A stretch of 64,000 nt of DNA. It comes from a virus (lineage: Duplodnaviria; Caudoviricetes). Numbering within the stretch: the stretch's first letter is position 1; every line of letters starts with the position of its first letter. A program made the translations under genes and the position numbers. The stretch covers positions 1 through 64,000 of the IMG/VR virus record IMGVR_UViG_3300033075_001896. One strand, written 5' to 3'. The notes below the pieces were generated by a model, which did not search any database, had not been told where the DNA came from, and worked only from the letters and a program-made list of their open reading frames with translations. Of this stretch, positions 997-64,000 are shown piece after piece.

Positions 997-1638
997 CTAC
1001 GGCAGGAGGAGGTCGTTGGCGCCCTCGGTGATCGTCCCGTCGCACTGGACGGGCGCGGTCGTGGTGAGGGTGGCGGGGCTTCCGCCGACGGTGCCCGTGA
1101 AGGTGGTGCCGATGGGGATCGTGACGCGGACGGCGTGACCCTCGCGCGCCGCGCGGTGCGAGCCGCCCTTGATCGTCACCACCTTCGCGTCGAGCGTGAG
1201 GTCGTCGAGGTCGAGCGTGACGGGCTTCTCCGTCGAGACCTCGAGGTCGCCGTGCGCCTTCTCCAGCACCTTCACGCTGCGGCCGCGCACGAGAAGGCTC
1301 TTGGCCGGGTAGCGGTCGCGCGTCGCGCGGGCCGAGGACTTCACGTCGGGATCGACCTCGGCGGCGAGCATCGGTCCCGCCAACCACACGGGCCGCTCCG
1401 GGTCGCCGTCGAGGAACATCACCGCGACCGTGGCGCCGATCGCGGGCACGAGGAAGGTGCCGCGCGCGACGCGGGCGTCCTTCCCGTACGACTGCCCGAT
1501 CGCGGGCACCCACGCGGGGAGCGGGCGCGTCTGGTGGATCGCCGGGACGAGGATCTTCAGGCGCCCGCGCTGTTCGGGGTCGTTGTGGTCGCGCACCGTC
1601 CCGAGCGTCACGCCGAACCGACGGGGGCCGTCATCCAT
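997..1638 (-). CDS. Baseplate spike / assembly protein V (gp5 OB-fold, gpV-like)
   Basis: GTVRDHNDPEQRGRLKILVP...W...GTFLVPAIGATVAVMFLDGDPERPVWLAG is the typical gpV/Vgr OB-fold signature; C-terminal AAREGH...GTITEG. Confidence 0.85.
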   Translation of the reverse strand: MDDGPRRFGVTLGTVRDHNDPEQRGRLKILVPAIHQTRPLPAWVPAIGQSYGKDARVARGTFLVPAIGATVAVMFLDGDPERPVWLAGPMLAAEVDPDVKSSARATRDRYPAKSLLVRGRSVKVLEKAHGDLEVSTEKPVTLDLDDLTLDAKVVTIKGGSHRAAREGHAVRVTIPIGTTFTGTVGGSPATLTTTAPVQCDGTITEGANDLLLP

Positions 1639-2365
1639 GGTGTTCGTCCTTCTGCCCCTTCGGACGGCCGTCGACCGCCCGCACGGGCCCCGGGCGGCCG
1701 AGGAGCGGGCGGAGCGTGCGGATCGCGGCCCAGACGACCTTGTGAATGGCCTGCCGCGAGACGCCGCGGCGCTCGCCGATCTCCTTGCGGCTCCTGCCGC
1801 TCAGGAACATCTTCAGGACCTCGCGCTGCGGCTCGGTGAGGAGCCCCGGCGTCTCGACGAGTGCGAGGAGCCGCCGGCCGCCGCACGTCTTGAGGAGCGA
1901 CCGCCACCGATCGTCCGTCTCGGTGCCCGCGAAGGGGTTCTCGGGCTCGTCGGCCCACTCCGCCGGGATGGTCAAAAAGGCTTCGTCGTGGCCGCCGCCG
2001 TTCATCAGCGCGGGGGACGAGACCTCGTTGTAGGCGCGCACCTCTTCGGGCGGCAGGAGCCGCGTGAGGAGCTGGCAGGGTGCGCGGCAGGTGGGGCGCT
2101 CGCGGCACCCCTCGCAGGGCTTCAGCGGGTCGGGGCCGCCGCGCTCGCGGCGCCACGCGAGGAGGTCGCCCTGTTCGGGGACACGGTGCGCGTCGAGGTA
2201 GTCCTTCAGCCACGCACCGAGGCCGAGGACGACGACCGTCCGCACGACCTCCCGGCGCTTCGAGCGGCGAAGGGGGCGTGCGGCCGTCTCGACCGCCTCG
2301 GGCGCGGCGACGAACCACCCGAAGTACGCCTGACTCGTTGTGGGCGCGCGTCGCATCGGCGTCAT
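1631..2365 (-). CDS. Cys-cluster + sigma-70 region 4-like HTH protein (putative transcription regulator)
   Basis: CEGCRERPTCRAPC; C-terminal LTEPQREVL...SRKEIGERRGVSRQAIHK; ATGA overlap with the upstream gene. Confidence 0.7.
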   Translation of the reverse strand: MTPMRRAPTTSQAYFGWFVAAPEAVETAARPLRRSKRREVVRTVVVLGLGAWLKDYLDAHRVPEQGDLLAWRRERGGPDPLKPCEGCRERPTCRAPCQLLTRLLPPEEVRAYNEVSSPALMNGGGHDEAFLTIPAEWADEPENPFAGTETDDRWRSLLKTCGGRRLLALVETPGLLTEPQREVLKMFLSGRSRKEIGERRGVSRQAIHKVVWAAIRTLRPLLGRPGPVRAVDGRPKGQKDEHHG

Positions 2366-3087
2366 CTCCCCTCCAGAAACGGCACGAGGTACGCGGGGCC
2401 TCGGGCGGGCCACGCGGCGAGCTCCTTCGGGCCGACCGAAGGCGGGCCGCCGCGCACCGAGGTCCAGAGCGTGTCGAGCACCGTCCAGGGGACGGCGAAG
2501 CGGAGCGGGCCCGCGGCGCGCTCGAACTCGACCACCACGAGGACGAGGGCCGCGGCGCACTGCGCGTAGCGCGTGAGCGCGTCGCGTTGGTGGCGCGCGA
2601 TCCCCGCGCGGTCGATCGTGCCGTCGGGGCGCTCGCGGTCGCGGTGCAGGCGCCCGGCGCGGTGCTTGGCCTCGATCACGAGCATGCGCTCGCGGGTCGC
2701 GCCGAGGTAGTCCGGGGGGGCGGTGCCCGAGATCGCCGCGAGGAGTCGCCCCCGGCCGTCGAACTGCGCGCGCCCACCCTCGACGTGGGGCTCCGACGGG
2801 GCGCCGATCTTCTCGATGACCAGGGCGTGCCCGTGCTCGATCGCGTACCGATGCTGCGCGGCGCACCACGCCTCGAAGGACTCGCCCGCGGCGTGCGCCG
2901 CCGCCCCGTGCGCCGCGTGCTCGGCACGGGCCGCGAGCGCGCGGTCGAGCGCGGGGAGCTCGGAGGGCGGCACGGCCGCGCGGCGGAGCGTGTCGAGCGG
3001 GTCGCGGCGCGCGGGCACCTGGGTGAGGTGGGCGTTGCGCTCGCGGAGGGAGGGCGGCAGGCTTTCGAAGAGCTCCCGCGGCTTCAT
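2362..3087 (-). CDS. RecU-like Holliday junction resolvase (PD-(D/E)XK)
   Basis: AGESFE...PPDYLG...VIEAKH...HQRDAL motifs. Confidence 0.7.
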   Translation of the reverse strand: MKPRELFESLPPSLRERNAHLTQVPARRDPLDTLRRAAVPPSELPALDRALAARAEHAAHGAAAHAAGESFEAWCAAQHRYAIEHGHALVIEKIGAPSEPHVEGGRAQFDGRGRLLAAISGTAPPDYLGATRERMLVIEAKHRAGRLHRDRERPDGTIDRAGIARHQRDALTRYAQCAAALVLVVVEFERAAGPLRFAVPWTVLDTLWTSVRGGPPSVGPKELAAWPARGPAYLVPFLEGR

Positions 3088-3190
3088 CGGTTACCTCGGG
3101 GGGAGGCGACGGCCGGGACGCACGCGCGGGCGCGCGCAACCGACGCGGGGCGCGCGGGCAGAGAAGGGTGGTGTCGGTCCTCGGGAAGCA

Positions 3191-7349: not shown

Positions 7350-8800
7350 GACTCATCCTCCCAGGCAGTTTCAATGCCATCGTGGGTCGGTTCTTCCGGC
7401 GGCACTTCCTTGAAGGAATTCCCGTCGAACATCTCCGACTGAAGATCCATGAAGCGCGTGATGTGCCTGGCGAAGCGGAGGCGCACGGTGTCGGTGGGTC
7501 CGCTCCGCTGCTTCGCGACGATGACCTCGGCGATGCCCTTGTCCTCGGTGTCCTTGTTGTAGACCTCGTCGCGGTAGATGAACATCACCACGTCGCTGTC
7601 TTGCTCCAGGCTCCCCGACTCGCGGAGGTCGGCGAGCATGGGGCGCTTGTTCTTGCCGGGACGTGTCTCGCACCCGCGGTTGAGCTGCGCGAGGGCGAGG
7701 AAGGGGCATTTGAACTCCTTCGCGAAGCTTTTGATGGAGCGCGAGACCTCCGCCACCTCTTGCTCGCGGTTCGACTCCTTGCGGTCGAGCTTCGCGCGCA
7801 TGAGCTGAAGGTAGTCGATCACGACCAGGCGCAGGCGCTTGTGCTTGAGGCGCATCCGGTAGAGGAGCGATTTGAGGTCGTGCAGCCAATAGGTCGCGTC
7901 GTGGATGTAGATCGGGAGGTGCGCGAGCTCGTTGGCTACCGCACTAACGCGATCAATCGTCTCTGAGGGAAGGGAACCCGGGCTCTTGAGTTCAGCCTCA
8001 GTCACGCCGGTAAGTTGCGAGGTGAGGCGTCGAACAATTTCGACCCTCGGCATTTCGATGGACACGAAAAGGCAAACGCCTTCTTCGTTGCGCGCGACGA
8101 GATCCTTCCCCGCGGCCACGAGCATCCCGAGACCGAGGCTCGTTTTTCCCATCGCCGGACGCGCGGCGAGGGTGATCATCTGTCCGTCGCTGTACCCACC
8201 GAGAAGTTCATCCAGGGACTTGAAACCCGTCGTGCGCCCAATCGTTTCGAGCGACGAACCATCCACGATGAGATTCATCAGCTCCGTCACGCCGTCGCTC
8301 ATGGACACCGCATCTTCGATCGTCGCACGCTCCGCGATGACCGTCTCCATCGACGAAGCTTCCTTCACCACGTCTTCGTAGGAGCCTTGCGCGGAGGCCA
8401 TCAACGTACGGAGCGCGGCGCGCTGGATGCGACGAACGGCGGCGGCGCGAAGGAGATCCTCCATCCACTGCTCCGCCCACACACTCGCGGCCGCGTGCGC
8501 GATGAGTTCGTGCAGGAACCGAGCACCGCCGACCGCATCGTGAGCGCCCGCCTCGCGCAGGGCGCGCGCCATCGTCCCGATCGTGAGCGTAATGTTGGCG
8601 CTCAGAAGTCCCGTGGCGACCTCCCAGACCTTCGCGACGCGAGGGTCGTGGAAGTCCTCGGGAAGCACCCGGCCCACGACCCTCGGCCAGACTTCTTCAG
8701 GTTTGTCGAGAAGCGCCCCCGCGAGGGCTTCCTCCACCTCTTGATCCCAGCGAGGCGGGATGATGTCCGCGATCGACTCGATCGTTTGCATGTTGCTCAC
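7346..8800 (-). CDS. dnaB: Replicative DNA helicase
   Basis: AARPAMGKT, VVIDYLQLM, LAQLNR, RPMLADLRESGSLEQDSD, KQRSGP. Confidence 0.97.
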   Translation of the reverse strand: MSNMQTIESIADIIPPRWDQEVEEALAGALLDKPEEVWPRVVGRVLPEDFHDPRVAKVWEVATGLLSANITLTIGTMARALREAGAHDAVGGARFLHELIAHAAASVWAEQWMEDLLRAAAVRRIQRAALRTLMASAQGSYEDVVKEASSMETVIAERATIEDAVSMSDGVTELMNLIVDGSSLETIGRTTGFKSLDELLGGYSDGQMITLAARPAMGKTSLGLGMLVAAGKDLVARNEEGVCLFVSIEMPRVEIVRRLTSQLTGVTEAELKSPGSLPSETIDRVSAVANELAHLPIYIHDATYWLHDLKSLLYRMRLKHKRLRLVVIDYLQLMRAKLDRKESNREQEVAEVSRSIKSFAKEFKCPFLALAQLNRGCETRPGKNKRPMLADLRESGSLEQDSDVVMFIYRDEVYNKDTEDKGIAEVIVAKQRSGPTDTVRLRFARHITRFMDLQSEMFDGNSFKEVPPEEPTHDGIETAWEDES

Positions 8801-9993
8801 TTCTTGCCCTTTCTCTGCTGAATCTCTTCAATGACTTTCAATGCGCGTGCTCGGATCTCTTCAGGGGGGAGACGCGGCTTGGCGGATTTCTCCACAGTCT
8901 TCACGGCGGGCTTGTGCGCGACGGTGGCCGGTCGGGTCTGCGCGCACCGCTCGCACGTCTGCGCCTCGTCGTAGAGCGAGAGAAGCGTCGTCCACGAACC
9001 GTCACGCCCCCGCAGGTGAGCGATCGAGGGACGCCACCCGTCGCGCAGGTGCCCCGCTTTGATGTGCCGCGCGAGGTGCCGCGTCCCGTCGAGCGTCCAG
9101 ACCGGGGTCACGCCCTGCAGCACGCCATCGAGTTCGTTCTCTTGAACCGGACCCGCGGAGAGGCGCAGTCCGCCGTCCGTGCGCAGCGTGAACAGCACCT
9201 CCGTCGCGCTCACACGTGCGCCCGTACGCTCCCAGGAGGAAAGGCGGGGAGTGGGGGAAACCTCAGTTGCTCCCGTGGTTGCTCCCGGTGCGGAAGCAAC
9301 TGGTTGCTCCCGGTTGCTCGCGTTTGGTTCGGCTTCTTTCTTTGTCTCTATCTCTCCGGAAGGGGGAGTGGGGGAAACCTCAGTTGCTCCCGTGGTTGCT
9401 CCCGGTGCGGAAGCAACTGGTTGCTCCCGGTTGCTCTGGGAATGAGCAACGGTTGCTCCGCGAGTTGCGGCCGGTCGCTCGTGCCCGAACCGACCCTTGT
9501 GTTGCCCCGCGCCCTCGGCCATCACCAGGGCCTCGTCCCGCGTGAGACCGAGACGGTCGATCGCCCTTTGACCGTGCTCACTGTCGAGCCACCGGACACG
9601 AGCGTCACATGTCTTCAGCCGCAGCTTGGAGAACCATGCGCGAAGTGCAGCCGCCCGCGCAGGCCGTGGCGACTCTTCTGCGGTGTTTGGAAGAGGCCGT
9701 GCCCCGTCATCGCCCGCGTCGACGGCCGGGAGATCGAGCGCGATCACGCCACCCTCGACGTACGCAAGGCGGACGCGGTGCAGCTCCAGCCACGCCGCGC
9801 GCACGGGTTCCTCGGGGTCGCGGCCAGAGACCGCCAGGAGCACCTCGTCGAGCGTCATCGCGCCGAGCGGCACCGCGCCTCGACCGTCCGCGACGTCCGA
9901 AAGGGACCACAGAAGTCCGCGCGCGGCGAGCGAGAGCTTCGCGCACCGAGGATCGTTGAGTTGCCCCGAGGGCGAGCGCCACCAGCCCTTCAC
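8797..9993 (-). CDS. Putative phage replication initiator
   Basis: Directly upstream of dnaB; N-terminal LSLAARGLLWSL motif; internal iteron-bearing duplication as in lambda O-type initiators. Confidence 0.7.
   Translation of the reverse strand: MKGWWRSPSGQLNDPRCAKLSLAARGLLWSLSDVADGRGAVPLGAMTLDEVLLAVSGRDPEEPVRAAWLELHRVRLAYVEGGVIALDLPAVDAGDDGARPLPNTAEESPRPARAAALRAWFSKLRLKTCDARVRWLDSEHGQRAIDRLGLTRDEALVMAEGAGQHKGRFGHERPAATRGATVAHSQSNREQPVASAPGATTGATEVSPTPPSGEIETKKEAEPNASNREQPVASAPGATTGATEVSPTPRLSSWERTGARVSATEVLFTLRTDGGLRLSAGPVQENELDGVLQGVTPVWTLDGTRHLARHIKAGHLRDGWRPSIAHLRGRDGSWTTLLSLYDEAQTCERCAQTRPATVAHKPAVKTVEKSAKPRLPPEEIRARALKVIEEIQQRKGKK
9246..9460. repeat. Putative replication origin: two identical 74-bp direct repeats (9246-9319, 9363-9436) with multiple GTTGCT/AGCAAC iterons and a T-rich spacer
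   Basis: Exact repeat with 117-bp period; GTTGCTC recurs four times per copy and again near 9452; spacer TTTGGTTCGGCTTCTTTCTTTGTCTCTATCTCT. Confidence 0.8.
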
Positions 9994-49118: not shown

Positions 49119-49120
49119 CC

Positions 49121-52812: not shown

Positions 52813-52840
52813 CGGCCCGTCGCGTGCAGCGCCACCGCGC

Positions 52841-53881: not shown

Positions 53882-54227
53882 CTTCCACGACGCGGGACTC
53901 GCCCGTCCCGCGCGGGCGGAGGGTGATCGCGGCCTTCGTGCTCCGCTCCCCCTGCGTGATCTCCGCGCGCTCGACCTTGAGCCGCTTCTCCCACCGACCG
54001 AGCGCGTCGGCCGTCGACGTCTTCATCTCCAGCGCGAGCGCGGCGTCGTTGGGCTCGTGGAGGAGCTGGCGCACGCGCGACCCGAACTCGGGCTGAAACT
54101 CGATCTCGCCGGGGGTCGTGTCGAGGATCGTGCGCGCGGCGACGAGGGCCGTTGCGGTGCCGGTCACGGTCGCGAGGTAGCCGCGGGCGCCGAGGTGCAG
54201 CGGGCGGTCGTAGCCGAAGGTCGTCAC
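53871..54227 (-). CDS. Baseplate gp25/GPW-like protein
   Basis: ILDTTPGE..FQPEFGS...LLHEP...LGRWEKRL. Confidence 0.88.
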   Translation of the reverse strand: MTTFGYDRPLHLGARGYLATVTGTATALVAARTILDTTPGEIEFQPEFGSRVRQLLHEPNDAALALEMKTSTADALGRWEKRLKVERAEITQGERSTKAAITLRPRGTGESRVVEVNG

Positions 54228-54526
54228 GGGAGGATCTCCACCTGCACGCGCGTGAGTGAGGGGATGCGCAGCTCGCCGGTCGTGGGGAGGTTGAAGGGGT
54301 CGATCACGTCGTTCGCGTCGGCGATCACCCACCAGAGATGCGGCGTGCCGTAGAACTCCTGGGCGAGGAGTCCGAGCTTCGTCGCGGCCGTGGCGGGCAC
54401 GCGAGCGTCGGGGTCGCGCGCGTCCTCGGGCAGGAGCGCCGGGGCGCGCGGGCCGTGGAAGGTCTCGTCGCGCACGAGGTCGCGGTAGTGGGGCTCGCGG
54501 GCGAAGGGGTTGTAGACCGAGCTCAT
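54224..54526 (-). CDS. Baseplate wedge LysM/gp53-like protein
   Basis: LAQEFYGTPHLWWVIADAN.VIDPF...LRIP. Confidence 0.85.
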   Translation of the reverse strand: MSSVYNPFAREPHYRDLVRDETFHGPRAPALLPEDARDPDARVPATAATKLGLLAQEFYGTPHLWWVIADANDVIDPFNLPTTGELRIPSLTRVQVEILP

Positions 54527-54530: not shown

Positions 54531-55010
54531 TCACCTTCCGGCCAGGACGTCGTCGCGGGAGAGGTCGCCGTTCACGGGCACGTTCGTCCACTTGAGCGTG
54601 GCGCGCAGCTCCCCGGGCGCCGTGGTGTCGGGGTCGAACCAGGGCCCGCTCTTGAGCATGACCTCCGTGATGATCACACGCAGCGTCCGGTAGCCGCCGA
54701 AGACGAGGAGCACCGGGTGCGGCCCGTTCCTGAGGCGCCCTGTGTCGTCGTACTCGGGGAGCGGGAGCGCTTCGAGCTGGCGGCGCACGCGCTCGATGTC
54801 TTGCGCGTCGAGTTCGCGCCGGATGAACACGAGCTCGACCTCCCCGTCGCGCCCCTTGCCGCCCGTGTAGTGCTGGCGCGGGAAGGAGCCGCCGCGGACG
54901 TTCTTCTCCGACCAGTTCGCGCCGACCGTGACCGGGAGGTCCTCGGGGTTGAACTGCCAGTCGAGGCGCAACCCGTCGACAAGATCGCGGAGGTAGCCCG
55001 TGGTCGCCAC
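54531..55010 (-). CDS. Tail tube initiator (CIS tube-like) protein
   Basis: WQFNPE...QHYTGG...PHPVLLVFG...VIITEV...FD. Confidence 0.75.
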   Translation of the reverse strand: MATTGYLRDLVDGLRLDWQFNPEDLPVTVGANWSEKNVRGGSFPRQHYTGGKGRDGEVELVFIRRELDAQDIERVRRQLEALPLPEYDDTGRLRNGPHPVLLVFGGYRTLRVIITEVMLKSGPWFDPDTTAPGELRATLKWTNVPVNGDLSRDDVLAGR

Positions 55011-55059
55011 GCCCCTCCGCGCGGGGTCACCCGGGAGGGATGACTGCGCGGCGAAGGGC
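55011..55059. promoter_or_regulatory. Back-to-back pair of late TGAC-N15-GTG elements
   Basis: Minus: GGGTGAC CCCGCGCGGAGGGGC GTG(55010); plus: GGATGAC TGCGCGGCGAAGGGC GTG(55060). Confidence 0.75.
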
Positions 55060-56484
55060 GTGGGCGTCCTCGATCAGGTCCCGATCCTCTACCTCTCGCT
55101 CGACGGCCAGCGCGCGCCCGCCGACCTCACGCGCCGGGTGCTCGAACTCACCGTCGACGAGGGCGAGAAGAAGGGCAAGGCCCTCGCGCTGCACGTCACG
55201 CTCAAGCTCGACGACGCGGACCACACGCTCCGCGAGCGCCTGCCGCAGGGGACGGTACTCGGCGTGCGGTGGGGGTATCCCGGCACGCTCTCCGCCCCGT
55301 TCGGCGCCGTCGTCCACGAGGTCACGCCGAGCTACGACGACGCGACCGTGACGGTCGAGGCGTTCGGCCGGGAGCTTGAGCTCTCGCGCGGCGCGATCCG
55401 CCACGTCTTCGAGGGCCGCACCTTCCGCGAGGCCGCCGAGGAGATCGCGCGCCACGCGGGGCTCACGGTGCGCTTCGAGGCGGAGGACACGATCCGCTTC
55501 GACGGGCAGGTGATCGACCACGAGACGGCCTGGAGCTGGATCACGCGCCGCTCCGCCGAACTCGGGCTCTCGGTCGAGATGGAGGGCGACACGATCGTGG
55601 TGCGGGAGCCGCCCGTGGGCGACCCCCCCGCGCTCGTGCTCCTCCACGGGTGGCGGAACGGCAACGTGCTCAACTTCGAGGTCAAGGAGGACACGAAGAA
55701 GGGGCGCACCGAGGACGAGGGGGTCGTGGCGCTCTTTCACGACCCGGCCTCGGGCCAGGTCCTCGCGCACGCGGCGGGCGACCCGAACACGACCCGGCAG
55801 ACGCTCGCCGCGCGACGACTCGCCGCCGAGCGCCGCCGCGCGCAGGCCGCCGAGGGGGCGGGGCTTTCGGCCTTCCTCGCGGCGCACCCCGACCTCCAGA
55901 CCGCCACGCCCGAGGCGCAGGCCGAAGCGTGGCAGGCGTCGCGGGCGGCGGCCCGACGTTCGAACGCCGCGCCGACCGAGGACGACGCGGCGTTCTTCGT
56001 GGTGAGCACCGAGAGCGGGGAGGTGCTCTCCGAGGGCGGGCGCGCCCCGGTGACCTCACCGCCGAACGGAGCCCCCGAGGCCGGACGCGTCGTCACGCCG
56101 CCCGCGACGGGCTCGACCGCCGCCGCGCGCCAGCACGTCGCGCGGGTGGCGTCGGCGACCTTCAAGCACCACGAGGCGCGGAAGGTCGAGGCCACCGCGA
56201 AGGCCCTCGGGCTCCCGCGCGCGCGCCGCGGGGTCCTCGTCAAGGTCCTCGGGGTCGAGGCCCGCGACGCGGGGCTCTGGCGGGCGAAGGGGTGCCGCCA
56301 CACGATCGACGCGAGCGGCTACGAGACCGAGCTCACGCTCACGCGCGACGGCGTGAACGCGGGGCGGCGCAACCCGCGGCGCACCGGGGCCGCGCAGCCG
56401 ACGCCCACCACGGGTCAGCCGGGGCGCGCCGCGGGGTCGCCGCAGACGACCGAGGCGCCCGATGTGGTGAACTTGGAGGAGTAG
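55060..56484 (+). CDS. Baseplate hub / late control D-like protein (inverted relative to other tail genes)
   Basis: VRWGYPG, ETAWSWITRRSAELG, GLP..RRG..V.VLG...GLWRAKGCRHTIDASGYETEL. Confidence 0.8.
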   Translation: MGVLDQVPILYLSLDGQRAPADLTRRVLELTVDEGEKKGKALALHVTLKLDDADHTLRERLPQGTVLGVRWGYPGTLSAPFGAVVHEVTPSYDDATVTVEAFGRELELSRGAIRHVFEGRTFREAAEEIARHAGLTVRFEAEDTIRFDGQVIDHETAWSWITRRSAELGLSVEMEGDTIVVREPPVGDPPALVLLHGWRNGNVLNFEVKEDTKKGRTEDEGVVALFHDPASGQVLAHAAGDPNTTRQTLAARRLAAERRRAQAAEGAGLSAFLAAHPDLQTATPEAQAEAWQASRAAARRSNAAPTEDDAAFFVVSTESGEVLSEGGRAPVTSPPNGAPEAGRVVTPPATGSTAAARQHVARVASATFKHHEARKVEATAKALGLPRARRGVLVKVLGVEARDAGLWRAKGCRHTIDASGYETELTLTRDGVNAGRRNPRRTGAAQPTPTTGQPGRAAGSPQTTEAPDVVNLEE

Positions 56485-56485
56485 C

Positions 56486-56701
56486 TCAGAAGGGCCAGCA
56501 CCGTCGGCACAGGCAGAGCGACGTGCGCACGCGCCGCGGCAGGAGCCCCCGGCGCCAGTGCGCGTGCGGGTGCTCGAACCACGTCGGCCCGCCCGGGTGG
56601 CGTCGCGGCGGGGAGGCGACGGCGCCGAAGTGCACCGGGGCGCTCGGGATCGCGGCCGTCGCGCCGAAGGCCAGGAGCAGGAGTCCGAGCGGGTACCTCA
56701 C
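56486..56701 (-). CDS. Small hypothetical protein
   Basis: Hydrophobic N-terminus; GTGA coupling. Confidence 0.4.
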   Translation of the reverse strand: MRYPLGLLLLAFGATAAIPSAPVHFGAVASPPRRHPGGPTWFEHPHAHWRRGLLPRRVRTSLCLCRRCWPF

Positions 56702-57273
56702 CGGAGGTTCGCGCGGTCGAGCTGGAGGTACGCGACGACCTTCGCCATCGACTCCATGAGGGGCGCGTCGGTCGAGACCTCGACCGAGCGGACGCGCGTG
56801 TCGGCGAGCGCCCGATAACGCTCGCGCATCGCGTCGCGCCGGGGGTCTTCGTCGAGCGCGGCGAGCGCCGAGGCGACGCGCGGGCGGTCGCGGAGGCGCG
56901 CGTTGAGCACCGCATCGGGCGCGGTGAGGAGGACGAGTACCGGTTCGATCCCCATCTCGGCGAGCGTGATCTCCTCGGCGCGCGCGAGCTCGGCGGCCCA
57001 CCGCGCGCCCGTCACCGCGTAGCTCGTCCAGTGCGAACGGTCGAGGAGGTGCACGCCCGGGAGGTCGCGGACGAGGCAGTGGATGCGCGCGCGCTCGTAC
57101 GCGTACCAGTACGCGCGGCGCACGTCGTCGGCGAGGTCCTTGGGGTCGTAGGGCGTCGCGTGGACGTGCCGATGCACGTGCGCGCCCTTGCCCGTGAGTT
57201 CGCCCGCGACGGCGGAGAGGATCGTGCCCTTCCCCACCGCGTCGGGGCCGTCGATCATGTAGAGCTGCTTCAT
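56698..57273 (-). CDS. Thymidylate/dNMP kinase-like P-loop protein
   Basis: IDGPDAVGKGT, LLDRSHWTSYA, VLLTAP. Confidence 0.8.
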   Translation of the reverse strand: MKQLYMIDGPDAVGKGTILSAVAGELTGKGAHVHRHVHATPYDPKDLADDVRRAYWYAYERARIHCLVRDLPGVHLLDRSHWTSYAVTGARWAAELARAEEITLAEMGIEPVLVLLTAPDAVLNARLRDRPRVASALAALDEDPRRDAMRERYRALADTRVRSVEVSTDAPLMESMAKVVAYLQLDRANLR

Positions 57274-57887
57274 CGGTCATACCCCCGCGATGGCATGTCG
57301 TTTGGGTCGTAATCGAACACGGGCCAGGCCCGCGCCGCCGACCTTTCGCCGTCGAGCCCCGACACGAACCAGGACCACCCTTCGCCCTTCACGAGGAGCA
57401 CGCGCTGCTTCGGACGATCGATCACACCGACCTGGACGCTTTGACCGAAGCCGAAGAACGGGACGGCCCACACGAACCGCCACGGATCGAACGGCAGGCC
57501 GCAGACCGAGACGGGTGGCGGGGTGTGGTAGCGCGTCCAGGCGCAGGGCCGCGGAGGCTCGATCGGGCACCCGTCGTTCCCGCAGTGCGGGCACGGCTCC
57601 GTGGGCTCCTTGGGGACGCAGCCGTCCAGCCACGCGCCCATCGCCTTCGCATCGAAGCGAAACAACTTGATGAGCGCCTGGCACTCGCGGACGAACATCG
57701 CGTTCGCGTACGTGACCATTGGAAGCGTCGAGGGCACCTCGGGCGCGTGCTCGACAAGGAGCACCTCGTAGCGTGAGATCAGGGCGATCGAGTCATCGAC
57801 GGTGCCGATCTCGATCACGTCCCCGCCGTCCTCTGCGTCGGCGACGGCGAGCATGAAGGCTTCCGAGAGATTCATGGCCGCGCTCAA
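57270..57887 (-). CDS. Hypothetical protein
   Basis: Coupled ORF; CPHC. Confidence 0.5.
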   Translation of the reverse strand: MSAAMNLSEAFMLAVADAEDGGDVIEIGTVDDSIALISRYEVLLVEHAPEVPSTLPMVTYANAMFVRECQALIKLFRFDAKAMGAWLDGCVPKEPTEPCPHCGNDGCPIEPPRPCAWTRYHTPPPVSVCGLPFDPWRFVWAVPFFGFGQSVQVGVIDRPKQRVLLVKGEGWSWFVSGLDGERSAARAWPVFDYDPNDMPSRGYDR

Positions 57888-58357
57888 AGCAGAAACCGTG
57901 CACGCGCGCAGTCCGCGTCGGTGAGTCCGACCGCGAGGTCCGTCCGCACGAACCGTTCACCCGGCACCCCCACGAGCGGAAGGTCGTCGATCACACACCA
58001 GCGCTCGACCTCGGGGTGCGCGTCGAGCCACGCCCGAATCTCGAACCAACGCCCTTTCTCGGTGCGGCGGTCATCGTCCAGCGACACGGGGTTGTCGTCG
58101 GGGGTTGCGCCCACGATGGGCGCGGTGAGGCCCGCGGCGCGCAGCACGTCCTCGGTGTGTGCGAGATACGTCCGCCACGAGGAGCTGATCACCAGCGACG
58201 CCCCCATCTCCGCGCAGAGCCGGTTGAGTCGGTCGATGCACGCGGGGTCAAGCCAGTCCACAGGCTTCGTCGTGCCGAGACGTGGCTTGAGCAGTTCGTA
58301 CCACCCCGCGTGGTTGAGCACGCCGTCGATGTCGAGGAAGATCACGACGGGCATCAC
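57884..58357 (-). CDS. HAD-family phosphatase (Swiss-Army-knife RNA-repair type)
   Basis: IFLDIDGVLN, VISSSWR, VIDD, GLT. Confidence 0.88.
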   Translation of the reverse strand: MMPVVIFLDIDGVLNHAGWYELLKPRLGTTKPVDWLDPACIDRLNRLCAEMGASLVISSSWRTYLAHTEDVLRAAGLTAPIVGATPDDNPVSLDDDRRTEKGRWFEIRAWLDAHPEVERWCVIDDLPLVGVPGERFVRTDLAVGLTDADCARARFLL

Positions 58358-59169
58358 GCGTCCTCACTCTCGTCGGTCGCGTCCTCGGTCTCCTCGCACC
58401 ACCGACAGACGAGCTTCTTGAAGCCCGTGTATTCGGCCGTCGCCTGGCAGGTGAGGCAGGCGCCCGTCTTGTCGCGGTAGCGCGCGGCCACCTGCGCGCG
58501 TCGGTCTTCCTGCGACATGAAGGGCGGTGCCTCGTCCGCGCGCCGCAGGGCCTCGTCGCTGTAGCGGCGCATCCCGCGGTCGAGGAACATCACCGTGAGG
58601 AACACCCACGCGCCCATCGCGAATCCCGTGACGTACGCGCCCATGCGTTCGGTTCCCACGGCATCGGCCACAGCGATGAAGCCTGCGCACGCCGAACCGA
58701 AGAGGACGAGTTCGTGCTTGAGCGCGCGCCACATCGAGGGCCGCGCAGTGGCGAGGAGGGCGCTTTCTTCGGCGGTGAGACCGCCCTCCGCGACCTCATC
58801 CAGCACCCGCACTGTGCTCGGCGTGAAGAAGTCGCCCACGTCGAGCTTCTTCTTGTCCTCGGGCGTGAGCGCGTGCGTCCACGTCTCGATCGCCGCGCCG
58901 GGCTTGCTCGTGCAGACGAAGCCCTCCCCGGGCGACTCGTCCGCGCGCTGCGCGCGGCCCGCGTCGGTGATCGTGTAGCGGCGGAGCGGGAGGTCGCGCC
59001 CCTCGACCGGGAGGGCCTCGGACGTGACGAGGCCGCGGTCTTCGAGCGCCTGAAGGTGCACGTAGACGGTGCCGCGCTGGAGCGCCCCGTCGGCGCGTTC
59101 GACGAGCTCACGGCCGGTCTTCGGCCCGGTCGCGAGGAGGTGCAGGATGGTGCGGTGAGCGTCGTTCAT
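58354..59169 (-). CDS. PadR-like winged-HTH fused to a 2-TM region
   Basis: GPKTGREL...GTVYVHLQALEDRGLVTS...RRYTITDAGR; two hydrophobic segments. Confidence 0.7.
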   Translation of the reverse strand: MNDAHRTILHLLATGPKTGRELVERADGALQRGTVYVHLQALEDRGLVTSEALPVEGRDLPLRRYTITDAGRAQRADESPGEGFVCTSKPGAAIETWTHALTPEDKKKLDVGDFFTPSTVRVLDEVAEGGLTAEESALLATARPSMWRALKHELVLFGSACAGFIAVADAVGTERMGAYVTGFAMGAWVFLTVMFLDRGMRRYSDEALRRADEAPPFMSQEDRRAQVAARYRDKTGACLTCQATAEYTGFKKLVCRWCEETEDATDESEDA

Positions 59170-59474
59170 GGCGACGGCGGGATCGCAAGGCCCACGCCAC
59201 CGGGCGTGCATCCGGCGTTGAGGCGCTCGATCGCGGCGCGCTCGTCGCGCGCGAGCGCGGGGAGGCGCTGGCAGACGAGGACGAGGACGGCCTGGGTGAG
59301 CACGCGCACCGAGGCCCGCGCGCCCGTCCCGCCCCCCGCGTAGCGGCGCACGGTCGACTCGCTCTCGCCCGCGAAGGCCGCGACCTCCGCGAGGTCGAGC
59401 TCGGCCAGGAGCGCCACGAGGAGCCGTTGCGCGTCGGCGGTGAGGGCCTGGGAGGGCTTGGGGCGGCGGGCCAT
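59166..59474 (-). CDS. Small HTH-like protein
   Basis: LAEVAAFAGESESTVRRYAGG. Confidence 0.55.
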   Translation of the reverse strand: MARRPKPSQALTADAQRLLVALLAELDLAEVAAFAGESESTVRRYAGGGTGARASVRVLTQAVLVLVCQRLPALARDERAAIERLNAGCTPGGVGLAIPPSP

Positions 59475-59514
59475 CACCCGTCGCGGGCGCGTCAACGCGG
59501 CGCGCGGTTGGCGC

Positions 59515-60225
59515 TCAATCCCCGTCGAGCATCGCGGCGTCGATCGCCAACGACTCGAAGAACTCCGCGATCACCCCGAGGAGTTCGGCCTGCGTGTCGC
59601 ACACCGCGTACTCCCCCTCGTGGAAGTCCTCCCAGGTGTAGAGGTCCCCTTCGGTGCCGTCGGTGTAGCGCACGCGGAGGTGGTAGGCCGTGAAGCGGTG
59701 CTCGGGCGCGAGGCCGGGGGGATCGGGGAGGAGCTCGGTCACGAGGATTCGCTCGATCGCGGCGAGCCGCGTCCAGCCGACGCGCGGCGTCCCCGCGTCG
59801 GAGCCCCACACCGCATCGAGGAGCGCCACCGCGTCGGCCGCGAGGGCGGTCGGGGGCTTCGCGCGCGTCGAGGCGTCGAGGCCCATCGCGGCCGTCATCG
59901 CACCGTCCGACCAGTACGCCCACCGCGCGGTCGCGTGCACGAGGTCGGCGGCGACGGTGCGCGTCGCGACGGTCGAGCGCAACACCACGTCGTGCCCCTT
60001 GGCCCGCGCGCGTTCGCCGTCGAGCCGGATTCGTTCGGCGACTTCGAGGTCGCGGGCGCGCGTGGGCGCGTCCGAGGCCGCGACGAGCGCGTCTTGTGCC
60101 GCGCCGAAGGTCCTCCACAACGAATCGAGCTGGACGAGCGCGTTCGGGGAGAGAGCCCACGGGAACGCCGCGCGGAGGTCGTCCTCGGTCATGGCCTCGG
60201 TCTGGAGTCGGATCTCGTGCCTCAT
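59515..60225 (-). CDS. Hypothetical protein
   Basis: AAGGAG RBS; ATGA coupling. Confidence 0.55.
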   Translation of the reverse strand: MRHEIRLQTEAMTEDDLRAAFPWALSPNALVQLDSLWRTFGAAQDALVAASDAPTRARDLEVAERIRLDGERARAKGHDVVLRSTVATRTVAADLVHATARWAYWSDGAMTAAMGLDASTRAKPPTALAADAVALLDAVWGSDAGTPRVGWTRLAAIERILVTELLPDPPGLAPEHRFTAYHLRVRYTDGTEGDLYTWEDFHEGEYAVCDTQAELLGVIAEFFESLAIDAAMLDGD

Positions 60226-60563
60226 CGTCGCTTCTCCTTCGTGCGCCTCTCCTTCACCGTCCGTGCCGCCGCGGTGGGGCGGCCCCGCGGCGGGATCGGG
60301 CACGCGGCCGAGACCTCGGGCACCTCGCGTTGCATGCGCCGCCACACGCTCGGCGCGATCCCCACCCGGCCCGCGGCGTCCCGCACCCGGTCGCGCGCGA
60401 GGGCGGCGGCCGTCCAGGCGGGCGCGAGCGCCGCGGCGAGGTGCTTCGCGGCCCGGTCGCGCGCCTCGCGCAAGGGGCCGCGCACGTCCTCGGGGTAGCC
60501 GTCGGGCACGAGGTCCATCAGCGCGATCAGGCGGTGTACGGGGTCGTTTCGGTCGGTCGTCAT
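60222..60563 (-). CDS. Small HTH-like protein
   Basis: VRDAAGRVGIAPSVWRR. Confidence 0.5.
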   Translation of the reverse strand: MTTDRNDPVHRLIALMDLVPDGYPEDVRGPLREARDRAAKHLAAALAPAWTAAALARDRVRDAAGRVGIAPSVWRRMQREVPEVSAACPIPPRGRPTAAARTVKERRTKEKRR

Positions 60564-60605
60564 GGGCGGATCGTACGCGCCGAAACCGTGACAGGATACG
60601 ACCAA

Positions 60606-60636
60606 AAAAGCAACGTTTGAGCGTTGCTTTTGTCGC
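60606..60636. promoter_or_regulatory. Inverted repeat/operator in an AT-rich divergent intergenic region
   Basis: AAAAGCAACG-N6-CGTTGCTTTT (60606-60631); overlaps GTTGCTTTTGTCGC, similar to the immunity operators. Confidence 0.6.
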
Positions 60637-60672
60637 GCTCGCACGTACCTATCTACAGAAGCGAGGGCGAGG

Positions 60673-60987
60673 ATGCGCATCGTGCTCGAAGTGACGGTGG
60701 CGACGGGCGGTCTCACGGCGGACGACTTCATGGCGCGCGCGCTCGCGGGGCTCCGCTCGGTGAACGACCAGGGCGAGGAGCTCCTCACGGCGATGGAGGC
60801 GGCGGTCTCCCCCGCGCCCGTGACCTACGGCGCCCTCACCGCGGCGCGCACGCGCATCCCCCGCGCGGCGCTCCTCGCGTCGCTCGAAGCCCACGGCTGG
60901 CGCATCGCGGCCGTCGCGCGGGAGTTCGGCGTGTCGCGCGCGACCGTCCGCGACCGCATGGCGGACTACGGCATCACCCGGGCGTAA
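60673..60987 (+). CDS. Fis-type HTH protein
   Basis: SLEAHGWRIAAVAREFGVSRATVRDRMADYGI. Confidence 0.8.
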   Translation: MRIVLEVTVATGGLTADDFMARALAGLRSVNDQGEELLTAMEAAVSPAPVTYGALTAARTRIPRAALLASLEAHGWRIAAVAREFGVSRATVRDRMADYGITRA

Positions 60988-61014
60988 CGCCCACGAAGGA
61001 AAGGACGAACGACC

Positions 61015-61362
61015 ATGGAAGCTCTCTTCACGGCAGACGACCTCATCCACGCCTACACCCGCGCGCAGGCCCTCGAAGACGGCGTGCTGGTGGACGTGAC
61101 GGCCGCGGCGGACGCCGTGGGCGTGCGCGTCCACACCGCGATGACCGCGGGCCTCTTCGCGGACGTGGGTGGCGAGGACGGGGCGCGTCTCCTGCGCGCG
61201 TTCGGCGACGTGCGCGCGGCGCTCCTCGCGGCGCCCGCGGACGAAGACCGCGTGTACTTCACGCTGCGCGGCGTCGGGGGCGACGTCGACGCGTGGGCGC
61301 ACATCGGCCCCGGCGACGACGGCGAGCCCGTGCTCACGCTCATGCGCCAGGGCGAGGACTGA
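61015..61362 (+). CDS. DUF6573-like phage protein
   Basis: IHAYTRAQALEDGVLVDVT...IGPGDDGEPVLTLM. Confidence 0.75.
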   Translation: MEALFTADDLIHAYTRAQALEDGVLVDVTAAADAVGVRVHTAMTAGLFADVGGEDGARLLRAFGDVRAALLAAPADEDRVYFTLRGVGGDVDAWAHIGPGDDGEPVLTLMRQGED

Positions 61363-61368
61363 TCCACG

Positions 61369-61404
61369 GGCGAGGGGCGGGGCCTTCGGGCTCCGCCCCT
61401 CGCC
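61369..61404 (+). terminator. 16-bp GC stem with cUUCGg loop (no U-tract)
   Basis: GGCGAGGGGCGGGGCC-TTCG-GGCTCCGCCCCTCGCC immediately before an AGGAGG RBS. Confidence 0.5.
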
Positions 61405-61418
61405 AGGAGGATGCGAAG

Positions 61419-61751
61419 ATGAACATGAACCCGGAGCGTCTGCGTCTCCCGATCGTGTGCGACGGCTGCGGCGGTCTCGGCGAGATTCGCGCGCGGCGCG
61501 CGTCGCCCGAGGCCACCTGCGACCTCGAAGAGTGCCCCGACTGCCGCGGCAACGGCACGCGGTACGTCACGCTCGACCCGGGCGACCCGTGGGCGATCCT
61601 GCGCGCCCTGCGGGCCTTCCCGCCCGTCGATGCGACCGCCGACGAAGGCGCGAGCCTCGACGGCTGCGACGCGGTCGACGCCCTCGGCGCGCTGCGCGCG
61701 TTCCTCGACATCGCGCTCGCGCAGGCCCCGACCTCGGCCTTCCCGCGGTAG
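61419..61751 (+). CDS. Protein with DnaJ-type CxxCxGxG zinc finger
   Basis: CDGCGGLG...CPDCRGNG; AGGAGG RBS. Confidence 0.6.
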   Translation: MNMNPERLRLPIVCDGCGGLGEIRARRASPEATCDLEECPDCRGNGTRYVTLDPGDPWAILRALRAFPPVDATADEGASLDGCDAVDALGALRAFLDIALAQAPTSAFPR

Positions 61752-62150
61752 CCCGAGGGGGTGTACGCTCCGCGCGTGCACCCCTACCGCACCCCCGCAC
61801 CGCCACGCTGGCGCCTCACGCCCTCTCGGGCGGCCCTGATCGTCGCAGGGCTTCTGTTCTTCGCCGCACTCACGTTCCTCGTACGCGTCTCGTGGCGCGT
61901 GTGGGGCGGTGGGTGAGCTGGAAGAGTCGCCGCCCCGATTCCCCCTCCGCACCCGGCCCGATGCCGGGCACACCCCGTCGCCCGATGCAACCGCACTCGA
62001 TCGCGTACGTCCCGCAGTCGTCCGTGCTCGAACCTACGCCTGAGGTGATCCCGCCGCCGCCCGAGCCGTACGACGAGCTCGCCGACGCGGTGGCCGAGCG
62101 CGCCGCAGTCGAGCGACTCAGGCGCGGGGAGTAACGCGGCACTTGCCGCC

Positions 62151-63101
62151 CTACCACGCGAGCCCGCTCCCGAGGAAGCTCGTGAGCCGCTGCGCGTCGG
62201 CCATCACGGCCGTGAGCTCCGCCTCGCGCTGCGCGAGCACGTTCCGCAGGGTGGGCTTCTCCGCCCACGCGCGCTCCAGGTCGAGGACCGTCTCACGGAG
62301 GAGATCGACCTCCACCGCGCGCAGCGCCCCTTCGCCCACCGGCAGGGCCGCGAGCCCGAGGAGGCGGTTGCGCACGGCGTCGAGGACCCCGCCCGCGCTG
62401 TTGCCGAGCGTGAGCGCGCTGCGGATCTCGGGCACGGCGCGCTTCAGGTGCACGAACGGGAGCACGAGGAGACTCTCGTCCTGGGAGCCCGTGCCGCCCT
62501 CGGCGGTGAAGTCGAGGTCGTCGTAGACCTCGCTGTAGGACCCGAGGCGCAGGATCACCTTGCGGTGCGTGGCGTCGCCGTCACTCGCGGCGGCGACCTC
62601 GACGCTCACGCGCCCGCCCGCGATGCCGAGCTCGCGCGCTTCGATGCGCGCGACGGGCGCCCCGCCGCCGTCGAGGATCGTGTCCCAGGCCCGCGCGGGC
62701 GAAGGGTCCGTGAAGGGGTCGGGGAAGGGCACGGTGTGCTCGCCGAGGACGATGGGCCCGCGGGTCGTCTCGGCGATGCGCGGCGTGAGGGTCGTGCCGT
62801 AGCTCGACTGGTAGGCCACCTGCGCGGCTTCGAGGTAGCGGCAGAGGTTGGTGGCGCGCGTCCAGACCGGGCCCATCGCCGTCGTCCACGTGGTGAGCGC
62901 GGCGCTGTAGGTCGCGTCGTCGGCGTCGACCGTGGTGCGCAGGCGGGCGTTGTCGGCGTCGTAGGCCGCGCCCGTGGCGTTCAGGCGCGCGAGGAGCCCC
63001 TGCCCGTAGAGCTTCGCGGGCGCGTCGGCCGCGAGCGAGACGTGCGCGAGGGCCGTCCCGAGCGCGTCGCGCGTCGTCGTCCAGGTGATGACCGAGGGCA
63101 T
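62151..63101 (-). CDS. Putative virion protein downstream of the tape measure
   Basis: Coupled to the TMP-like gene; IEARELGIAGGRVSVEV...SEVYDDL resembles a sheath-type beta domain. Confidence 0.55.
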   Translation of the reverse strand: MPSVITWTTTRDALGTALAHVSLAADAPAKLYGQGLLARLNATGAAYDADNARLRTTVDADDATYSAALTTWTTAMGPVWTRATNLCRYLEAAQVAYQSSYGTTLTPRIAETTRGPIVLGEHTVPFPDPFTDPSPARAWDTILDGGGAPVARIEARELGIAGGRVSVEVAAASDGDATHRKVILRLGSYSEVYDDLDFTAEGGTGSQDESLLVLPFVHLKRAVPEIRSALTLGNSAGGVLDAVRNRLLGLAALPVGEGALRAVEVDLLRETVLDLERAWAEKPTLRNVLAQREAELTAVMADAQRLTSFLGSGLAW

Positions 63102-63103
63102 CG

Positions 63104-64000
63104 CTACTCCGTCTCGACCGCGCGCCCGCTGCGCAGGGCCGTGGTGGTGTTCTGCCGATTGACGGCCCGCATGACCTCGCGGCCGTCGATCTCTACGATC
63201 GTGGGCCCCGGGGGCGGCGGCGGGGGCGTGTTCACGACGACGGCGGCGGGGGTCTGCGCGGCGGCCATCACGCCCGTCGTGCGGGCGACGTTCGCGGCCG
63301 TCACCGCGCCCGCGCCGGCGGCCTGGGTGTCCACCACGGCGCCCGCCTGCGCGGGGGTCGCGGGGCCTTGCGCGAAGGTCTCCAGGGTGCGCGCCGCGCC
63401 CTCCAGGCCCGAGGGCCGCAGCGCCGCCGGGAGCCCGCGGTACATCGACACGATCTCGCGCGCCACGAGGCGCAAGGGGGCGAGGAGGAGGTTCGGGAGC
63501 GAGCTGAAGGTCGTGCGAATGCCCGCGACGAGGAGCACGAGCGCGAGGCGCGCCCCCGCGAGGTGCACCCCGAACCGCCGCTCCAAGAACCCCCCGACGG
63601 CCCGCAGCGCGCCGAGGATGAGCCCGAACGCGAACCGGGCCACGAAGATGAAGGGGGCGAAGAGGACGCGGGCGAGGGCGGCGAAGACCCCGACGCGCGC
63701 GCGGATCCACCCGAAGAGGGCCACGAAGGGGGCCGTGAGGGTGCGGCCGATCGCGAGCGCCGCGCGTCCGAGGGCACCCCCGATCCACACCGCCGCCCGC
63801 GCGAGGGCCCCGACCATCCACGCGAGCGCCATCCCGACGCGCGCCTGCACGACGTACCACGCGAGCACGATCATCGCGACGGCCACGCGCAGGGGCCAGA
63901 GCGCGCGCCAGAGCGACTGCGCGCCCGCGACGACGCGCCCGCGGAACCGCTCGAACGACCCGTCGGTGCGGCCGAGGAGCACCGCGAGCTCGATGAAGGG
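63104..64000 (-). CDS. Tape measure protein, C-terminal part (runs off window)
   Basis: Ala/Gly/aromatic amphipathic repeats and terminal VEIDGREVMRAV motif. Confidence 0.75.
   Translation of the reverse strand, partial: PFIELAVLLGRTDGSFERFRGRVVAGAQSLWRALWPLRVAVAMIVLAWYVVQARVGMALAWMVGALARAAVWIGGALGRAALAIGRTLTAPFVALFGWIRARVGVFAALARVLFAPFIFVARFAFGLILGALRAVGGFLERRFGVHLAGARLALVLLVAGIRTTFSSLPNLLLAPLRLVAREIVSMYRGLPAALRPSGLEGAARTLETFAQGPATPAQAGAVVDTQAAGAGAVTAANVARTTGVMAAAQTPAAVVVNTPPPPPPGPTIVEIDGREVMRAVNRQNTTTALRSGRAVETE

Follow-up and report, generated by a model that had tools for sequence, protein, structure and literature searches.

Must the baseplate genes of a contractile-tail phage stay together in one co-oriented operon and, where they do not, how would each of them be expressed? 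This question is raised by the window, a stretch of 64,000 nucleotides (bases 1-64000 of the single 91,917-bp virus contig IMGVR_UViG_3300033075_001896, 72% GC) from an uncultured temperate contractile-tail phage (myovirus), in which the spike gene lies far from the hub gene, the hub gene is inverted, and the other baseplate genes are separated by inserts. A first-pass annotation, made from the letters of the window, had described a decentralized late-gene architecture enabled by a portable start element with a TGAC box. We find that the architecture is real and not the product of misassembly. Taking all of the evidence into account, the reading that we consider probable is that of a plastic baseplate end, with an exact inversion of the hub gene, two hotspots, a relocated spike gene, and gene-autonomous late start elements.

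A Baseplate Module Dispersed around the Genome

Genes were called by third-position GC (GC3), since shadow open reading frames are abundant at 72% GC, and these calls reproduce the gene order and strands of the first-pass annotation. The late minus-strand operon covers 48 kb, from 88142 to 40412, and its order is conventional through terminase, portal, protease, major capsid, adaptor, neck, sheath, tube, chaperone, and tape measure. Past the tape measure gene it fragments into an accessory block, the inverted hub, and two opposite-strand cassettes, the block and the cassettes being the three inserts that had been proposed to split the operon. The genes concerned are:

63104-65764 (3′ part, 63104-64000, in the window), minus strand: tape measure protein (TMP); TMP_3 match, E 6.4e-16, N-terminal part
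62151-63101, minus strand: 316-aa gene, directly 3′ of the tape measure gene
56485-62150, 7 minus-strand and 3-4 plus-strand genes: accessory block of 5,666 bp between the 316-aa gene and the hub
55060-56484, plus strand: hub of the gp27 / Mu gp44 / P2 gpD type; phrog_52, E 2.8e-15
54531-55010, minus strand: tube-like 159-aa protein, candidate tube initiator; weak CIS_tube match, E 1.7e-3
54224-54526, minus strand: 100-aa baseplate protein, like gp53 and the Cis7 C-terminus; phrog_7145, E 2e-13
53871-54227, minus strand: gp25 / gpW sheath-initiator wedge protein; GPW_gp25, E 2.4e-11
51644-53880, plus strand: gp25/J cassette, with a 364-aa gene (51718-52812) and a radical SAM gene (52841-53881; phrog_9298, E 4e-45), flanked by GGGTGA
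50164-51618, minus strand: Baseplate J (gp6-like) wedge protein; Baseplate_J, E 1e-15; start element upstream at 51619-51640
49121-50164, minus strand: P2 gpI-like baseplate protein I; Tail_P2_I, E 1e-6
47934-49120, plus strand: I/fiber cassette, with a 380-aa gene (47976-49118; weak, structural PIN-like lead), flanked by GGGTGA
44845-47907, minus strand: two fiber-like late genes, 620 and 398 aa; phrog_34307 and a weak T7 fiber N-domain match; start element at 47908-47929 heading the first
997-1638, minus strand: central spike of the gpV/gp5 type, 213 aa; Phage_base_V, E 1.5e-12; last gene of the early block

The tape measure, gp25, J, I, and Phage_base_V spike matches all pass the Pfam thresholds. 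In the case of the spike, the score is 48.1 bits over residues 12-88 against a cutoff of 23.8 (49.8 bits in a six-frame search), which places its N-terminal oligonucleotide/oligosaccharide-binding (OB)-fold domain above the family gathering score; weak matches in the PDB are to the OB and beta-helix parts of VgrG. The AlphaFold2 (AF2) monomer model, built from a 16-sequence alignment, is poor (predicted local distance difference test score, pLDDT, of 46) and confident only in the C-terminal ~40 residues, and the C-terminal ~55 aa have homologs in 177-aa proteins whose genes lie between those for hub and gp25 in a canonical Mu-like module that is unrelated in other respects.

By convention the spike is encoded beside the hub and gp25 in the baseplate operon, and here it is instead the last gene of the replication/modification operon, as the first-pass annotation had stated. 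The distance of ~53 kb to the hub that was given there is correct along the contig, and so is the accompanying caveat that circularity would bring the two closer: the map closes as a circle at about 92,416 bp (of which the window is ~70%), leaving 39 kb between spike and hub, and putting the first late gene 5.3 kb downstream of the spike, beyond the switch region. We note that a spike beside the hub is a positional convention and not a requirement of the protein family. Similarly, the premise that tape measure, hub, spike, wedge, and fiber genes share one co-oriented operon holds for P2- and Mu-sized phages, but not as a rule, T4 being dispersed.

A more mundane explanation would be that the contig is misassembled, or that the remote spike comes from another element while the true spike gene sits in the tail operon, and this is indeed a metagenomic contig, rated by CheckV as 78% complete and "linear". 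However, the four junctions concerned (spike/265-aa gene, radical SAM/gp25, initiator/hub, and hub/accessory block) recur at 100% or 99.99% in independent assemblies (the JGI contig, Logan contigs of two runs, and run X18), and the sibling JGI contig L003 (77,296 bp) closes the circle by bridging position 1 to 91917 via 499 bp, following the window from 11638 down to 1, then the 499 bases, and then the contig from 91917 to 83413. In addition, the part of the tail operon that lies beyond the window (64-70 kb) encodes nothing other than tape measure, chaperone, tube, and sheath proteins, Phage_base_V (PF04717) matches once in the whole 91.9-kb record (and once in the relative G001), PAAR and Phage_GPD have zero matches across the contig, and the spike has the same context in the relatives G001 and L013. 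An artifact of either kind, including the second spike gene outside the window that had been raised as an alternative, is thus extremely improbable.

The neighborhood of the spike comprises two further genes of interest:

1631-2365, minus strand: sigma-70 region-4-like helix-turn-helix (HTH) protein; weak Sigma70_r4 and extracytoplasmic function (ECF) sigma matches, E about 1e-3
198-995, plus strand: 265-aa gene, "g1", convergent with the spike gene and near it in all relatives

The sigma-like gene overlaps the start of the spike gene by 8 nt, and the window, G001, and L013 have in common the succession of a 241-aa gene, the sigma-like gene, and the spike, beyond which lies the convergent 265-aa gene, even though in L013 the spike is only 60% identical while its neighbors are 80-96% identical. 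The placement of the spike at the end of the early block, by the sigma-like gene and the lysogeny-switch region, is common to the close relatives. Synteny had been suggested as a check on the layout: G001 and L013 share the spike context, while the G001 hub is co-oriented with its operon, unlike that of the window.

The g1 gene adjoins the spike in G001, L013, and G002 and lies within about 3.5 kb of it in G003. G001 carries three g1 paralogs, one each beside the spike, the tape measure gene, and the hub (in map order, and not in the order of these neighbors, 8739-9641, 20498-21397, and 51522-52325), and duplicated g1 fragments surround tnpB in G003. The g1 protein has zero family or PDB matches; it may be a partner of the spike or a passenger of mobile DNA. 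As a separate observation on the spike itself, the close homologs P0004/P0005 are 76-87% identical to it over the OB-fold half and have a wholly different, longer C-terminal part; because the OB-fold half is shared and the C-terminal part differs, the tip appears from these sequences to be swapped as a module.

Inversion of the Hub Gene

The hub protein is divergent in sequence, with zero matches to the Phage_GPD hidden Markov model from Pfam at E<=1, a weak match to Gp44-like_2nd, and a PDB sequence match to 7b5h_AJ (E 2e-5, the gp27-like part of All3320), in addition to the phrog_52 match given above. Its predicted structure (AF2, pLDDT 66) was compared to known folds with Foldseek. Matches with E values between 1e-18 and 1e-11 are to the hub parts of VgrG proteins from contractile injection systems (CIS) and type VI secretion systems, to Mu gp44, and to the hub of pyocin R2; the entries include 7b5h_AJ (1e-18), 3cdd (3e-14), Mu gp44 as 9ki1_G and 1wru, the pyocin hub 6u5h, and T4 gp27 as 1k28_D. 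Despite the sequence divergence, the model shows the hub fold of tandem tube-like beta-barrel domains, and the hub assignment of the first-pass annotation, as well as its inverted orientation, holds at the level of family, PDB match, and fold. The gene is intact and under purifying selection, with ratios of nonsynonymous to synonymous substitution rates (dN/dS) of 0.13 relative to the ENA contig L014 and 0.34 relative to G001.

In G001, an IMG/VR contig whose hub and spike are 75% and 94% identical to those of the window, the hub points the same way as initiator, gp25, J, and I. Aligned to G001, the unit that was turned round in the lineage of the window extends from the first base of the hub's own element (GGATGAC) through the hub stop codon, and the element is the only sequence upstream of the hub that is shared between the two orientations. 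The inner junction is thus occupied by two start elements:

55007-55063: divergent elements, GGGTGAC..GGAGGGGCGTG on the minus strand and GGATGAC..GAAGGGCGTG on the plus strand, back to back and 5 nt apart

The 49-bp divergent spacer contains both elements and nothing else. The same inverted orientation is found in contigs from other studies that have diverged by ~3%, namely X3 (freshwater, 2018), X7 (freshwater, 2024), and L014, the last of which is missing the nearest plus-strand genes upstream of the hub.

Such an arrangement brings to mind a programmed invertible switch of the Gin/Cin or shufflon kind, or flipping between inverted repeats, of which we would be seeing one state. The phage does encode a serine recombinase:

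37959-39635, plus strand: large serine recombinase (integrase); Resolvase, Recombinase, and Zn_ribbon_recom matches

Moreover, the two elements at the hub junction form a 26-nt imperfect palindrome (inverted repeat I6), with a weak inverted match beyond the hub 3′ end (I11), and relatives bear inverted repeats of 120 bp (around the tape measure segment) and 1.26 kb (around a spike-hub segment), discussed below. However, the recombinase is of the large integrase type, which by its matches marks the phage as temperate, and lies about 15 kb away. No inverted repeats above shuffle level flank the hub (score 26 vs a shuffle mean of 24.6), a single orientation is present in all contigs from four runs and four assemblies, with no strand-change joints listed, and the co-oriented relative is 20-25% diverged. 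The flanking sites, nearby invertase, and paired orientations of a Gin/Cin-type segment are thus all missing here, and we consider a switch of this kind very unlikely. At the same score (26 vs 24.6), no remnant of the hub 5′ end was found at the canonical site; G001 keeps a 120-bp remnant of its tape measure gene.

Two Insertion Hotspots in the Baseplate Operon

The gp25/J and I/fiber sites are hotspots, at which opposite-strand cassettes are gained, lost, and swapped among ~97%-identical strains. At least six states of the gp25/J site occur among the contigs compared:

Empty: L014 and X7
364-aa gene alone, radical SAM gene missing: X3
364-aa gene with radical SAM gene: window and L015
Unrelated insert of 0.5-0.7 kb: L016-L018
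Compound form: L019
199-aa gene with radical SAM gene: G001

L014, L015, and G001 carry no insert at the I/fiber site. Wherever a site is empty, the TGA stop of the upstream gene falls inside the GGGTGAC of the next gene, with the start codon 15 nt later, while filled sites bear GGGTGA at both flanks. Genomes that are nearly identical differ at a fixed site in whether an insert is present and in what it contains, as is characteristic of moron loci and hotspots. The accessory block varies as well, its genes at 57270-58357 being missing in L014, X3, and X7. Taken together with the hub, these comparisons fit late genes that would behave as self-contained units, the inverted hub keeping its own element and cassettes coming and going exactly at the element.

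With regard to content, the "ParB-like" and "PIN" labels of the first-pass annotation go back to weak leads: language-model and structure comparisons point to a DGQHR/ParB-like fold for the 364-aa protein and to a PIN-like one for the 380-aa protein, but searches of both in Pfam, NCBIfam, PADLOC, and PDB sequences gave nothing usable. None of the cassette genes matches a known defense family in PADLOC, and NCBIfam does not recognize the radical SAM gene as QueE. We note separately that the early block carries QueC, QueD, and DpdA (9990-14197) without a recognized QueE, and that the cassette at 51718-53881 pairs a radical SAM protein with a DGQHR/ParB-fold-like one; the gp25/J cassette could belong, as an optional component, to the pathway of 7-deazaguanine DNA modification.

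The Late Start Element

The consensus of the start element was re-derived from start-codon contexts after the exact pattern TGAC-N8-GAAGGGGC (<=2 mismatches) had proved to be at chance level, with 12 matches vs 7.7. The re-derived element spans 22-26 nt and reads G(G/T)TGAC-N7-9-GGAGGGGC-N1-4-start or, with the core written as (G/A)(G/A)GGGG(C/G), G(G/T)TGAC-N7-9-core-N0-4-start. A relaxed form of this pattern has 29 matches in comparison to 12 +/- 3.6 in shuffled sequences, 24 of the 29 being on the late strand, and a stricter form has 16 vs 2.7 in the genome of the window, 18 vs 2.7 in G001, and 10 vs 1.8 in G003. About 17 copies stand exactly at called late-gene starts, both between contiguous genes and after inserts, and one precedes the first late gene, past a 434-nt gap. 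A copy also heads the tape measure gene that is inverted in G001, and another heads the hub that is reversed in G003. Its SD (Shine-Dalgarno)-like core, GGAGGGG, occurs in one orientation at a short fixed distance from the start codon, often with the stop codon of the upstream gene within the element; an RNA hairpin is unsupported (mean folding energy -11.1 vs -10.3 +/- 0.6 for shuffled copies).

These data bear on what had been proposed for the element. The hub, initiator, J, and fiber blocks that restart after an insert do begin with it, but so do contiguous late genes, such that it does not single out the restarts. The degenerate copy described upstream of the spike (1654-1673) exists as a sequence, but its pattern is at chance level (12 vs 7.7) and it is not conserved in the relative with 60% identity. 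Finally, the notion of a portable element that enabled the architecture suits the inverted hub, which keeps its own copy, but not the spike, whose relocation was not enabled by the element, as no convincing copy precedes it.

As to function, the element is most likely a putative -10-only late promoter combined with a ribosome-binding site, akin to the short late promoters of T4, which would perhaps be read through one of the phage region-4-like proteins (1631-2365, or contig 70411-71076). Each late gene would then be expressed from its own element at any site and in either direction, and tolerance of the scrambling would follow. We infer such gene-autonomous late expression from the sequence comparisons, because the operon mRNA could not serve for translation of the inverted hub, which in L014 lacks plus-strand genes nearby and which shares only the element between its two orientations. 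In its strongest form, this proposal would make the element a self-sufficient late expression unit, acting via the phage sigma-like factor and doubling as a preferred breakpoint, with late genes as freely movable cassettes; we put this forward tentatively, as a possibility that has the odds against it. If true, the strain-to-strain differences would amount to a natural promoter-sufficiency experiment.

Alternatively, the element could be a translation-start or coupling signal only, with the scrambling tolerated via two-strand read-through or via unrecognized promoters inside neighboring genes. A precedent exists in the start-associated sequences (SAS/ESAS) of Cluster K mycobacteriophages, an asymmetric repeat a few nucleotides upstream of 11-19 starts whose function is not established (PMC3203893), and which includes the SD core, occurs in one orientation, and sometimes contains the upstream stop codon (PMC3203893). 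The element described here resembles the SAS in being asymmetric, near many start codons, in one orientation, and inclusive of the SD core; in addition, its short and fixed distance to the start, its GGAGGGG core, and the upstream stop codon often found within it match SAS properties (PMC3203893), and terminators are not above chance. In contrast, the SAS (GGGATAGGAGCCC) is confined to nonstructural genes, while the element has a separate TGAC box and marks late structural genes. Purely translational action would also leave the inverted hub to be supplied by something other than the operon mRNA, and read-through from nearby plus-strand genes does not serve in L014, where these are missing; the element remains the sole upstream sequence shared by the hub in both orientations, and it also precedes the first late gene after the 434-nt gap. 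We therefore regard translation alone as a serious, if less than even, prospect.

Two observations on individual copies can be added. A start element at contig position 75515-75535, outside the window, lies inside the protease/scaffold gene (74524-76194), which would point to a nested internal start of the kind that many capsid protease/scaffold genes have. Two identical 23-nt copies (ATGACACCCCGCGGAGGGGCATG), at 43063-43083 and 43725-43745, head adjacent genes that follow a response-regulator-like gene (43742-44524), in the presumed lysis region.

Rearrangements in More Distant Relatives

The hubs of G002 and G003 are 49-51% identical to that of the window. In G002, 22 kb separates the tape measure gene from the hub, and the spike and g1 lie 4 kb upstream of the hub on the opposite strand. 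In G003, 6 kb separates spike and hub, both of which are turned round with respect to the tape measure gene; this 10-kb spike-hub segment is bounded by 1.26-kb, 99.4%-identical inverted copies of TnpB (IS605 OrfB), at 1128-2402 and 12490-13773 (L035). In G001, the tape measure gene is the inverted one, with its start next to that of the 316-aa gene. Two inverted copies of a 120-bp repeat, at 17783-17901 and 23884-24002 (L026/L027), enclose the surrounding 6.1-kb segment; the repeat consists of the late start element and the first ~97 nt of the tape measure gene, such that, as assembled, a 5′ remnant of the tape measure gene stays at the canonical site. G001 also has a TnpB gene (L026, 10213-11843) immediately upstream of its hub.

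Because these relatives show a near spike, an inverted tape measure gene, and a TnpB-bounded segment, rearrangement of the baseplate module is, as judged from their sequences, recurrent in the clade. The causes are probably ordinary, and would include insertion sequence (IS)-type elements, recombination at short repeats, and exchange of cassettes via flanking homology, because TnpB (IS605-type) genes and inverted repeats occur in relatives. The TnpB genes of the relatives combine OrfB_IS605, Cas12f-like TNB, and HTH domains. A Y1 TnpA is found in none of the four genomes, and in that of the window both PF01385 (TnpB) and PF01797 (TnpA) are unmatched.

Two further genes of these relatives are of note: in G002, the tape measure gene is directly followed by one for a complete NtrC-type sigma-54 activator (L030, 16932-18419), where the window has only a small HTH_8 protein in its accessory block, and G003 has an MmeI-like type IIL restriction-modification gene between spike and hub (L035, 45932-49441).

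Points against the Proposed Reading

Several of the results above weigh against the reading of a plastic baseplate end with gene-autonomous start elements. With regard to the plasticity, the rearrangements of G001, G002, and G003 are each seen in one assembly, and inverted repeats bound two of the three; assemblers can pick either orientation across such repeats, which makes these calls uncertain. With regard to the element, it lies 14-17 nt from the start codon, often over the upstream stop codon, a geometry that suits an SAS-like translation-initiation or coupling signal equally as well as a promoter. The spike and g1 have at best degenerate, differently spaced copies, and because of this the element leaves the expression of the relocated spike unexplained. 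Finally, neither sigma-70-type promoters (in a consensus scan) nor intrinsic terminators were found above chance flanking the cassettes. Because the flanks show neither, read-through across the cassettes is possible, and the "restarts" are perhaps unneeded.

Comparison to Known Systems

T4 is a precedent for the layout. In its annotated record (NC_000866), the spike gene 5, at 77,959-79,686, lies 38 kb from the hub gene 27, at 117,228-118,403; one strand encodes genes 51-27-28-29-48-54 and the other gp25 and gp26, and homing-endonuclease genes (segC, segD, and segE) and small open reading frames are interspersed among the structural genes. The T4-type dispersed layout, with baseplate genes in separate clusters and strands and a short repeated late motif before each, is also what we find here. 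T4 late genes are served by many short -10-type late promoters. The two phages differ in that T4 is a 169-kb virulent phage with its spike gene in a late structural cluster (53-5-6-7...), whereas the present phage is temperate, has 92 kb, and apart from these changes shows the co-linear order of Mu or P2, with the spike ending the early/middle block by the sigma-like gene. The motifs differ as well (G(G/T)TGAC..GGAGGGGC here and TATAAATA in T4). A dispersed baseplate layout is thus already known from T4, and the general picture is unchanged; what is new is the temperate, otherwise co-linear 92-kb setting, the spike behind a sigma-like gene, the exact inversion of one gene, and two heptamer hotspots that vary between natural strains.

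The canonical Mu/P2 module consists of tape measure, (DNA circulation), hub, spike, gp25/W, J, I, and fiber. The same set of proteins is present here (tape measure, hub, gpV-type spike, gp25, J, and I), the genes for tape measure, hub, gp25, J, I, and fiber follow one another as in that module, and a distant homolog of the spike tip occupies the canonical slot in L011. In the window, in contrast, this slot is without a spike and holds the tube-like and gp53-like genes, the hub is inverted, and there are three interruptions. P2/P4-type hotspots (PMC9122126) likewise have unrelated accessory genes swapped at fixed intergenic sites between near-identical phages; here, the sites interrupt the baseplate operon itself and coincide with a specific heptamer of the start element. 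The association with IS200/IS605 elements is seen in the TnpB beside the hub (G001) and the inverted copies around the spike-hub segment (G003), while the genome of the window has no tnpB.

Strains that are ~97% identical differ by whole cassettes at two exact sites in the baseplate operon, and relatives by inversion of the hub or the tape measure gene; therefore, essential virion genes can be shuffled on short time scales. The locus also yields a compact candidate late-gene signal, for which the 49-bp divergent spacer is a ready-made reporter, and unannotated cassettes (radical SAM, DGQHR/ParB-fold, and PIN-like) that may be antidefense or DNA-modification genes. A caution for annotation follows as well, as pipelines that expect the spike beside the hub would call such phages incomplete.

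Other Genes of the Module and Genome Context

The "initiator" and "LysM" labels given to the two small genes between hub and gp25 stand in part. The 159-aa protein has the weak CIS_tube match, and its gene adjoins the hub also in G001 and G002. The 100-aa protein matches the C-terminus of 9gtp_P ("LysM domain-containing protein", E 5e-5), as well as All3321 and T4 gp53, but a LysM domain itself was not detected in it. For the 316-aa protein, searches of Pfam, NCBIfam, PADLOC, and PDB sequences gave nothing usable, and it has no similarity to a Mu-type DNA-circulation protein. The accessory block encodes HAD_SAK_2, PadR-like, HTH_8, DUF6573, and P-loop kinase-like proteins, the HTH_8 (Fis-type) one being a small protein at 60673-60987.

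At least part of the stretch is present in runs of 12 studies, from activated sludge, wastewater, and fresh water. Searches of GTDB genomes with the spike and J proteins gave zero relatives, whether host or prophage, and cultured phages gave remote matches only.

Outside the late operon, the genome is organized in two blocks. A plus-strand block (17339-40422) encodes primase, a C5 methylase, NUDIX, DUF5131, and the large serine recombinase. The early minus-strand block runs from 17285 to 997 and encodes QueC, QueD, and DpdA (the 7-deazaguanine DNA-modification genes), DnaB, a helicase, an N6/N4 methylase, the sigma-region-4-like gene, and the spike. Within this early block, a 776-bp gap (region 8797-9993) contains a perfect 74-bp direct repeat, at 9246-9319 and 9363-9436, which may mark an origin or iteron region.

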